From Podarcis gaigeae (lineage: Eukaryota), in NCBI GenBank assembly GCA_964106915.2, contig OZ066914.1: a DNA stretch of 64,000 bases. One strand, written 5' to 3'. The position numbers and the translations under genes were made by a program. The notes under the pieces are model-generated. The model was not told the origin of the DNA. It saw only the letters and a list, made by a program, of their open reading frames with translations, and searched no databases. Positions 9,721-64,000 of this stretch are shown piece after piece. Each line of letters begins with the position of its first letter. Within the stretch, counting starts at the first letter, position 1.

Positions 9721-9897
9721 TTTGAAGACTCTCCCAGCCAAAAACAATAGCTCTCCTTTCCCTTTTCTAATGAGAGACAAGCTATCTGAGGTAAGGTGCA
9801 GTGGCCAGAGGAAAATCTTGGTAACTTTTGTTAGTGAAATTTCCTCCCCAGGGTGGTTCCGCTGTCACCAACACACTTACCCTTATTTGGCACAAGG

Positions 9898-10334
9898 CAG
9901 TATTGATGTATGGAAGTGAGAGCTGGACCATAAAGAAGGCTGATCGCCGAAGAATTGATGCTTCTGAATTACGGTGCTGGAGGAGACTCTTGAGAGTCCC
10001 ATGGACTGCAAGAAGATCAAACCTAGCCATTCTTAAGGAAATCAGCCCTGAGTGCTCACTGGAAGGACAGATCCTGAAGCTGAGACTCCAATACTTTGGC
10101 CACCTCATGAGAAGAGAAGACTCCCTGGAAAAGACCCTGATGTTGGGAAAGATGGAGGGCACAAGGAGAAGGGGACGACAGAGGAGGAGATGGTTGGATA
10201 GTGTTCTCGAAGCTACCAGCATGAGTTTGACCAAATTGCGGGAGGCAGTGGAAGACAGGAGTGCCTGGCGTGCTCTGGTCCATGGGGTCACGAAGAGTTG
10301 GACATGACTAAACGACTAAACAACAACAACAACA
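9898..10334 (+). mobile_element. BovB (RTE-clade LINE), 5'-truncated 3' end
   Basis: Encodes MYGSESWTIKKADRRRIDA..LRLQYFGHLMRR..WRALVHGVTKS, followed by a GACTAAAC repeat and (CAA)n tail; nearly identical to 63570-64000. Confidence 0.95.
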
Positions 10335-36621: not shown

Positions 36622-36726
<105 letters not shown>

Positions 36727-36821: not shown

Positions 36822-36841
36822 CACTTTCTGTTTCTGTTTTG
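36822..36841 (-). CDS. CACNB4: CACNB4 exon 7, 20-nt HOOK microexon
   Basis: (A)KQKQKV; TTTCAG / GTAAGT; 95-nt intron to exon 8. Confidence 0.95.
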
Positions 36842-36994
36842 CTGAAAGATCAATAAATAAATAAATATTACTTCGCTTAACCATGTAAAAAGTCACGCAG
36901 CATGCAAACTATGCCTTGCACAGCAATTCCATCTGATGGTAGCCGAAACAATTAGAAAAGCTAACAGTAATGAATTTGCACATCTCTTGACTTC

Positions 36995-37129
36995 CTTCTG
37001 AAGAAGCAGCATTGTTTAGTTTGATGAGTGCATTTCAGTTGCTCGTTCCATTCATGTTCACCCCAGGATCCCCAGTTCAGGATCCCACCCTCCACCACAA
37101 TTCATCTAGAACCAAAGGGTTTCCTTCGC
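36995..37129 (-). pseudogene. Vestigial long alternative HOOK exon (paralogous to the CACNB1/CACNB2 'PFFKK' exon)
   Basis: AG acceptor at 37131-37130, entry frame GEGNPLVLDEL, end THQTKQCCFFR (TTCTTCAGAAG) and broken donor G-AAGT; 135 nt; two stops and frameshifts. Confidence 0.6.
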
Positions 37130-37890
37130 CTACCAAGAGTAGTAGTACTCTTCAAATCTCCTCTTAGTCACATGCAGTGATTTCCAGTGAGGCGGGCATC
37201 TAAATGACCCAAGCCTAGGCTGTGGTGTGTGTGTGCGCGCGCACGCGCACATGCACAATCACATTTGTCTCCCGCCCCCCAACAGCATGTCAGTAGCAAA
37301 GACTCATGCAGTTGGCTGAACCCACAAAGCAGAGGCATTTAGATGCAGCCCACAGCCAGGTGACGATCTGCTCAGATACAAGCAGCCCCCACATTGCAAG
37401 GGCACTAGCACATACCATATAGTATAAAGCAAAATTCAGCTGCAAGCCTACTTCTCTAGGGCCTGCTTAGAAGTCAGTAAAAACATTTTGATTGGTCACA
37501 AACCAACAAGGACCATTTTTACAACCAAAGTTTATTTTCACAGGCATTATTCAAAAGCAGCAACAGATCAAAAACAGCTATAAGATGTATCCTATGCAGA
37601 AAGCAAAACAGCTACAGTAACTGGGGTTTTTTTCTTTACATATCCATTTTGATATACCTATTTCTCAAGTTAAAATTTATTATATTTACTCCTTATATAC
37701 CGTAAGCTCGGCTCAAAAATCCTTCAAAGCTGCAATTAATTCAATATATGCAGCTGCTTTCTTCCATCACCCACAGTAACCCTATTAGCATGAATGCAGG
37801 TTTGAACTAGGATTGCACAATAGATAGTATCCTGCCTCCACAATCAAAGTCACCTTTAAAATTTAAGTGACTTCATTTTAACAGATATTA

Positions 37891-38013
<123 letters not shown>

Positions 38014-62467: not shown

Positions 62468-62647
62468 GCGCCAGGCGAAAACATTCCTCTTTAACCAGGC
62501 CTTTGGCTGATTGACATCTAATGCACTTTAAAAATGCGTTGTGAAATGGGGGGTTATTGGGTTGTCTTTGTTTTTATTTTTTATTGTAATTTTATGTTGT
62601 AAACCTCCCTGAGATATACAGTATACAAATTAACTAAAATAATAAAA
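62468..62647 (+). mobile_element. LINE2 3' end
   Basis: RRQAKTFLFNQAFG* followed by a T-rich UTR, TGTAAACC and an AATAA tail. Confidence 0.75.
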
Positions 62648-64000
62648 TACACTCAATATGCCAGCAAGTCTGGAAAACTCAGCAGTGGCCAGAGGATTGG
62701 AGAATATCAGTCTACATCCCAATCCCAAAGAAGGGCAGTGCCAAAGAATGCTCCAACTACCACACAATTGCACTCATTTCACACACTAGCAAGGTTATGC
62801 TTAAAATTCTACAAGGAAGGCTCAAGCAGTATGTGGACCGAACTCCCAGAAGTGCAAGCTGGATTTCGAAGGGGCAGAGGAACCAGAGACCAAATTGCAA
62901 ACATGCGCTGGATTATGGAGAAAGCTAGAGAGTTCCAGAAAGACATCTACTTCTGCTTCATTGACCATGCAAAAGCCTTTGACTGTGTCGATCACAGCAA
63001 ACTATGGCAAGTTCTTGAAGAAATGGGAGTGCCTGATCACCTCATCTGTCTCCTGAGAAATATCTATGTGGGACAATAAGCTACAGTTAGAACTGGATAT
63101 GGAACAACTGATTGGTTCAAAATTGGGAAAGGAGTACAACAAGGCTGTATATTGTCTCCCTGCTTATTTAACTTATATGCAGAATTCATCATGCGAAAGG
63201 CTGGGCTGCATGAATCCCAAGCCGGAATTAAGATTGCCAGAAGAAATATCAACAACCTCAGATATGCAGATGACACAACCTTGATGGCAGAAAGTGAGGA
63301 GGAATTAAAGAACCTTTTAATGAGGGTGAAAGAGGAGAGCGCAAAATATGGTCTGAAGCTCAACATCAAAAAAACGAAGATCATGGCCGAAATGGAGGCA
63401 GTGAGAGATTTTACTTTCTTGGGCTCCATAATCACTGCAGATGGTGACAGCAGCCATGAAATTAAAAGACTTCTTGGAAGAAAAGCAATGACAAACATAG
63501 ACAGCATCTTAAAAAGTAGAGACATCACCTTGCCAACAAAGGTACATATAGTAAAAGCTATGGCTTTCCCAGTAGTGATGTATGGAAGTGAAAGCTGGAC
63601 CATAAAGAAGGCTGATCGCCGAAGAATTGATGCTTTTGAATTCTGGTGCTGGAGGAGACTCTTGAGAGTCCCATGGACTGCAAGAATATCAGACCTATCC
63701 ATTCTTAAGGAAATCAGCCCTGAGTGCTCACTGGAAGGACAGATCCTGAAGCTGAGGCTCCAATACTTTGGCCACCTCATGAGAAGAGAAGACTCCCTGG
63801 AAAAGACCCTGATGTTGGGAAAGATGGAGGGCACAGGGAGAAGGGGACGACAGAGGATGAGATGGTTGAATAGTGTTCTCGAAGCTACCAGCATGAGTTT
63901 GACCAAACTGCGGGAGGCAGTAGAAGACAGAAGAGCCTGGCGTGCTCTGGTCCATGGGGTCACGAAGAGTCGGACACGACTAAACGACTAAACAACAAAA
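62648..64000 (+). mobile_element. BovB (RTE) LINE, 5'-truncated and inactivated
   Basis: RT motifs QAGFRRGRGTRDQI, FIDHAKAFDCVDH, QGCILSP, LRYADD; premature TAA at 63077-63079, frameshift ~62840, in-frame deletion at ~63388; GACTAAAC/CAA tail at the window end. Confidence 0.97.

Follow-up and report, generated by a model that had tools for sequence, protein, structure and literature searches.

Gene structure of CACNB4 around intron 6

The window, that is, the whole stretch of 64,000 nucleotides from Podarcis gaigeae that was analysed, contains exons 3 to 14 of CACNB4 on its minus strand. Intron 6 and its neighbouring exons are arranged as follows:

37899..37975, minus strand: exon 6, 77 nt, ending in phase 1 (one base of a codon, at 37899)
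36822..36841, minus strand: exon 7B, the working HOOK exon, 20 nt
36646..36726, minus strand: exon 8, 81 nt, entered in phase 0

In the mature mRNA, exon 6 would be joined to 7B (20 nt) and on to exon 8, unless 7B were skipped to give a frameshifted short form. Such a frameshifted form lacking 7B is present in the proteins P0006, P0014, P0050 and P0436, and section 9 of PMC3972191 describes skipping of exon 7 (exon 6 to exon 8) as a frameshift leading to truncated Cav-beta forms. In an RNA contig of run X15, exon 5 is spliced to exon 6 and the contig stops at 37899; the contigs of this run, which cover neither exon 7B nor exon 8, display no joint into the stretch of intron 6 considered below, and RNA run X23 yielded 0 placed reads.

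Several other features of the locus were recorded. In CACNB4 proteins of human, bat and two unnamed sources (P0429, P0438, P0459, P0462), exon 6 continues into a 13-residue piece that ends in a stop, and the end of lizard intron 7 (36763-36727, minus strand) encodes a similar D-M..F-stop tail in one frame, hinting at a possible upstream alternative acceptor in intron 7; the alignment of intron 7 between lizard and bird (locus L001) was not significant. About 100 nt of intron 8 (35881-35785, minus strand), located just 5' of the 59-nt exon 9, are clearly conserved in lizard and bird, with 0 of 200 shuffles reaching the same score, and represent the strongest intronic conservation seen in this comparison. 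Skipping of exon 9 is presumably the source of the truncated beta4c form. Most bird CACNB4 models labelled as partial (P0002-P0120) show translated intron from directly 5' of exon 7B (a read-through) in place of exon 6, which is a systematic annotation artefact. LINE retrotransposon pieces, which we take to be of the Bov-B/RTE type, lie on the plus strand at 62603-63988 and 9825-10304, and RVT_1 was detected in the first two frames tested and was absent from the third. A short frame at about 1870-1800 (minus strand), which we assume to be the first exon of ARL5A, lies within a GC-rich, CpG-island-like region at 1-4 kb, downstream of CACNB4; its identity as ARL5A was not confirmed by BLASTP, and the hamster model P0278 is a CACNB4 fused to an Arf domain.

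A stretch of intron 6 resembling the long HOOK exon

CACNB1 and CACNB2 possess a long HOOK exon (7A) upstream of 7B, and a preliminary description of this DNA had proposed that intron 6 of CACNB4 carries a decayed relic of such an exon. The relevant features are:

36995..37129, minus strand: candidate 7A-like stretch, 135 nt (3n, in contrast to the 3n+2 of a working 7A), not coding in its present form
37163..37170, minus strand: branch-like 8-mer
37130..37136, minus strand: proposed acceptor, with its AG at 37131-37130
37077..37079, minus strand: first in-frame TGA
37035..37037, minus strand: second TGA
37024..37037, minus strand: 14 letters missing in the bird alignment, starting with the second TGA
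36990..37017, minus strand: 3' end bearing the likeness to 7A
36991-36990, minus strand: weak GT
37089..37129, minus strand: only sub-option that is free of stops and keeps the frame, 41 nt (3n+2), which would need a weak GT at 37088-37087

All letters on which the relic had been based, namely the branch-like 8-mer, the acceptor AG, the phase-1 entry, the peptide pieces, the two TGAs, the length of 135 nt and the GT at 36991, are present. The candidate does not lie directly upstream of the 20-nt exon, as had been stated, since 153 nt separate its end from exon 7B (36841-36822). Its position and length agree with those of 7A, as a fish CACNB2 locus (L006) contains an intact 7A of 134 nt located 202 nt before 7B.

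When splice sites were scored with a matrix built from the gene's own 11 exons, the proposed acceptor reached 6.0 bits, within the range of the real acceptors (3.4-14.1), and ranked third among the 59 AGs of intron 6. Four other AGs (at 37162, 37159, 37151 and 37149) separate it from the branch-like 8-mer, so that these two motifs are unlikely to form a working pair. The acceptor pyrimidines sit in a small hairpin (37135-37152), and in the X15 contig they are altered while the AG is retained (depth 6, at the contig end). A second small hairpin at 37085-37064 (minus strand) is made up of a palindromic 8-mer that occurs twice. At the other end of the candidate, the donor position after 36995 reads GA, no GT directly following the FF codons, and all candidate donors rank below the 12 best of the 60 GTs in the intron; the GT at 37088-37087 has about 2.6 bits, compared with about 3-9 for real donors. 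Thus the candidate lies between exon 6 and exon 7B like a working 7A, and it lacks the open 3n+2 frame and the GT donor of one.

Of the three peptide pieces named in the preliminary description, the first two share a frame and the last is in another, the frame changing before the last ten codons. The 14-letter segment 37037-37024 could be the cause of this frameshift; a 14-nt tandem duplication near 37085-37058 was considered as the cause and set aside, as the bird alignment points rather to 37037-37024. An origin of the candidate from a repeat was rejected because no copy occurs elsewhere in the window, and a non-coding RNA was rejected as well (one repeat-driven Rfam match with 22 bits against a cut-off of 85 and an E value of 0.76; folding z -0.94). 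The read-through peptide gave only chance PDB matches, no Pfam family and no BLASTP alignment, and it matched none of 25 database candidates, which is weak evidence.

Similarity to exon 7A of CACNB1 and CACNB2

To score the likeness, 30 distinct long exons were taken from fetched proteins (24 from CACNB2, 5 from CACNB1 and 1 from a tunicate; one mis-annotated row was removed and one bird row added) and codon profiles were aligned to the DNA with frameshifts, stops and neutral drift allowed. When splice sites were left out of the model, each of the 6 settings placed the end of the best full alignment at 36995, but an equally high score was reached by 21-189 of 400 shuffles and by 33-90 of 119 chunks of the window; local alignments landed elsewhere than on the candidate. 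With splice sites, the outcome depended on the profile. The score was equalled by 50 and 16 of 1000 shuffles and by 25 and 15 of 112 real window chunks (P of 0.13-0.22 for the chunks) when the all-paralogue profile was used. For the CACNB2-only profile, the corresponding values were 185 and 90 of 1000 shuffles and 35-44 of 112 chunks, and for the CACNB1-only profile the best match lay elsewhere and 46-71 of the 112 chunks were as high. The best full-exon alignment in intron 6 ended at 36995-36989 with the all-paralogue profile and in most CACNB2 settings. When ends were restricted to 60-300 nt before 7B, 13 and 4 of 1000 shuffles and 26 and 20 of 336 real windows scored as high; this range, chosen at the outset, agrees with the fish CACNB2 locus L006 but not with a fish CACNB1 locus (L008), in which 7A lies 484 nt before 7B.

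The resemblance is confined to the 3' end. When the acceptor and the first 14 codons were used, the candidate was never chosen (9 of 9 settings). In contrast, 19 of the last 28 letters of fish CACNB2 7A plus donor are matched at the candidate 3' end, and this match is the sole one of its kind on the minus strand of the window and one of 4 in 128 kb, corresponding to a P of about 0.03 for a 1-kb intron. The letters read as FF-R double as a run of pyrimidines followed by an AG that is the fourth best of the 59 in the intron. In absolute terms the candidate reaches 2-11 bits, compared with 64-112 bits for real fish 7A. The signal of 7A is therefore borderline, with a P of 0.02-0.05 at best, in the 3' end only and as the best of several tests. 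The claimed resemblance to the long exons of CACNB1 and CACNB2 holds marginally above shuffles for the all-paralogue profile and fails for the other two; a similarity not above shuffled controls had been named as counting against the relic, which is the case for two of the three profiles and narrowly not so for the third.

The comparison loci came from a metagenome search, in which 4 of 10 loci (L001, L006, L007, L008) were Cav-beta genes by tblastn and 6 had no match, and a scan of viral contigs returned 0 loci. Locus L007 comprises only 41 nt before 7B. The order of exons is 7A then 7B in L006 and L008, and 7A, 7B, 7C in the protein P0348.

CACNB4 proteins of other vertebrates

Of 486 fetched proteins, 235 carried the CACNB4 signature, and 91 remained after 144 without an exon 6 or exon 8 anchor had been dropped. 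None of these 91 contained an FFKK-type exon, 64 having the plain short exon and 27 something else. Among proteins of at least 537 aa, a limit meant to favour long-exon forms, 0 of the 36 listed CACNB4 entries had such an exon. The listing ran on to CACNB2 and CACNB1 and holds one or the other from sharks, rays, bichirs, gar, lungfish, coelacanth, frogs, turtles, lizards and snakes; it holds no CACNB4 of sharks, gar, bichirs, lungfish, coelacanth or reptiles. A long-exon form of CACNB4 with a short N-terminus would presumably be shorter than 537 aa and fall outside this listing. The intact FFKK-type exon envisaged for some vertebrate CACNB4 is thus absent from the annotated proteins, the level to which this survey applies, where unannotated exons are invisible and cluster members may hide behind their representative. 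A Takifugu model (P0365) with a 45-residue insert that appeared similar by eye gave no alignment in BLASTP, and both this model and the raccoon-dog model P0280 look like splice-site read-throughs. In the openly accessible literature searched, no report of a 7A relic or a poison exon in CACNB4 was found.

Comparison with a bird locus and with close relatives

Locus L001, a metagenome contig, contains a bird-like CACNB4 whose intron 6 is 377 nt long and at its end resembles the bird models. The part of the lizard intron that it matches best locally is the 3' half of the candidate. Alone this match is not significant (352 of 1000), whereas an alignment anchored at 7B, though weak, is (2-17 of 500 shuffles and 0-2 of 326 chunks as high). 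In this alignment, the proposed lizard acceptor faces an AG in the bird, and the last five letters of the exon are identical in the two but precede GG in the bird instead of a GT donor; the aligned bird stretch lacks the FF letters and the 14 letters of 37037-37024 and carries stops. Five nt beyond the exon end in this alignment, the bird has a consensus-like GT close to the weak lizard GT at 36991, with less than 3 bits in the lizard-derived matrix. Lizard and bird are identical at 67 of 113 positions of the candidate (59%) and at 32 of 55 (58%) and 51 of 89 (57%) positions of its flanks, and therefore the candidate is not a separately conserved element. The bird intron gave no 7A signal in any of 18 settings, 91-487 of 500 shuffles reaching its score, and its best match to the fish 7A end lies in another register. 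In a joint lizard-bird test 26-195 of 300 were as high, a weaker result than the 4-5 of 300 obtained for the lizard by itself with the all-paralogue profile. One bird was compared, and the power of this test for a very old loss is limited.

In contigs of two close relatives, F (X10) and G (X11), no change is listed between 36934 and 37180. All four substitutions of the covering contig of relative F fall outside the candidate; for relative G, one substitution and one gap letter were unplaced, and the comparison passed over a repeat at 37218-37266. Differences merged by hand gave 24 events for the two relatives in the 1008 nt of intron 6, none of which falls in the 135-nt candidate (P 0.032). 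As judged from these contigs, the lesions of the candidate are real. An X15 RNA contig (37139-37397) differs at about seven places from the DNA run X10, which bears the same species label, suggesting that it represents a divergent lineage under that label.

Four TGCATG motifs are located in the same region:

36901, 37171, 37250 and 37305 (region 36901..37310), sense strand, minus: TGCATG motifs

This density corresponds to a Poisson P of 0.0045 in comparison with the rest of 19.3-64 kb. We take these motifs to be RBFOX sites, which could tune inclusion of 7B. A fish CACNB2 has one TGCATG about 50 nt before 7B, and none was found in the bird intron 6. If functional, this part of intron 6 might serve as a slowly changing context that sets the inclusion of exon 7B through the motifs around the candidate.

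Age of a possible loss

The long exon occurs in CACNB1, CACNB2, a tunicate and invertebrates, as stated in section 9 of PMC3972191 and seen in the fetched proteins, and by parsimony from these genes the ancestor of CACNB4 had it, in agreement with what had been proposed. In order to ask when it could have been lost, decay of held-out paralogue exons was simulated on a lizard-bird tree with branch lengths of 0.35 estimated from lizard-bird identity, assuming that a CACNB4 7A would be no more diverged than a paralogue. Simulated exons that had died recently had medians of 30-61 bits at 0-0.2 substitutions per site, compared with 2.8 observed, whereas those dead for 0.55-0.75 substitutions per site had medians of 5-8 bits, compared with 8.0 and 4.4 observed. 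Likelihood ratios against chance were 0.09 with the CACNB2 profile and 0.00 with the CACNB1 profile for late loss in lizards, 0.25 and 0.01 for loss midway in the lizard line, 0.88 and 0.03 for loss at the lizard-bird split, and 3.0-3.5 and 0.3-0.6 for older loss. Under this model late decay is rejected, and a very old ghost and chance are inseparable by simulation (likelihood ratio 0.3-3.5). The contention that the exon decayed late is thus contradicted by ratios of 0.00-0.25 for any loss inside the lizard line and by the broken state of the bird stretch.

Discussion

With a probability of about 0.5, we regard the candidate as ordinary intron that is spliced out and whose likeness to 7A arose by chance. 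It would be the best-looking spot of a 1-kb intron, where a pyrimidine run and an AG happen to read as FF-R and a passable AG lies 135 nt upstream. This accords with the real-chunk controls, the unmatched 5' half, the failure to match any database entry, the silence of the bird intron and the count of 0 among 91 proteins; on the other side stand the end-restricted scores, the 19 of 28 letters, the length of 135 against 134 nt, the absence of any of the 24 events and a ratio of about 3:1 in favour of very old loss with the CACNB2 profile. It is possible, though in our opinion doubtful, that the stretch is CACNB4's own 7A, which would have been lost before the lizard and bird lineages parted, probably close to the origin of the jawed vertebrates, and have drifted since as slowly evolving intron, its 3' end being kept by luck in the lizard and lost in the bird. 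Place, orientation and length would be right for such an ancient ghost, the match of the 3' end would be explained, the bird alignment gives an AG at the acceptor and the same exon-end letters before a non-GT, and simulated old exons score like the observed stretch. However, the CACNB1 profile reverses the likelihood ratio, the bird contributes no added signal, the candidate is conserved no better than its flanks and its 5' half is unmatched. That CACNB4 kept an intact 7A as far as the reptile line and lost it by recent decay, as first proposed, is barely credible: on paper two stops, a 14-nt indel and the donor would suffice as lesions, but at most 1 of 100 simulated recent relics scored as low, the bird stretch is broken too, and the 36 long CACNB4 entries include no long-exon form although the listing holds CACNB2 of many lineages.

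It is also unlikely that the acceptor at 37129 is used at a low level as part of a live cryptic exon in this lizard group. The GT at 37088 would yield a 41-nt exon in frame, that is, a third HOOK form of 14 residues, and a later GT a stop-bearing poison exon leading to mRNA decay under control of the flanking TGCATG motifs. The rank of the acceptor, the lack of events in the candidate and the four sense-strand motifs are consistent with such an exon, and a precedent is found in zebrafish beta2.1, for which PMC2365960 describes a lineage-specific HOOK exon bearing a stop. Against it argue the poor donors, the four AGs that follow the branch-like motif, the altered acceptor pyrimidines in the X15 contig, the absence of TGCATG from the bird intron and the absence of the corresponding peptide from the 486 fetched proteins and the 25 database candidates. 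Quite improbable is a combination in which the stretch is a ghost of 7A whose old acceptor still serves this lizard group, either for the 41-nt third HOOK exon (37129-37089) or for a regulated poison exon; it would explain both the lack of change across close relatives and the four flanking motifs.

According to section 12 of PMC3972191, channels inactivate more slowly with the long HOOK exon and its basic 3' end, and the lack of this exon in beta3 and beta4 is interpreted there as a vertebrate shift to faster inactivation. If the candidate were a true fossil, CACNB4 would have lost the exon by decay in place and not by deletion, and the loss would become datable; this would be a modest addition, because parsimony already implies the loss. 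If a ghost exon were in use again, it would offer an elegant example of exon recycling. Under the chance origin that we prefer, the present evidence mainly illustrates how readily an intronic pyrimidine run followed by an AG mimics the FFKK end.

In comparison with exon 7A of CACNB1 and CACNB2, the candidate shares the place between exon 6 and 7B, the phase-1 entry and a length of about 134 nt, and its 3' end resembles the basic-FF-basic motif; it differs by its two stops, frameshift, 3n length and lack of a GT donor, and its 5' two thirds are unrecognisable. Skipping of exon 7 to give truncated Cav-beta forms is a known fate of the same region that requires no extra exon and in which the candidate plays no part. 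Further parallels are exon 7C of CACNB2 and exon 7 of zebrafish beta2.1, described in PMC8373072 and PMC2365960 as lineage-specific extra HOOK exons that arose in this intron region, one of them with a premature stop. Exon 7C is located after 7B (P0348), unlike the candidate, which precedes it, and both exons are supported by cDNA, whereas the candidate is predicted from the sequence and has weak donors.
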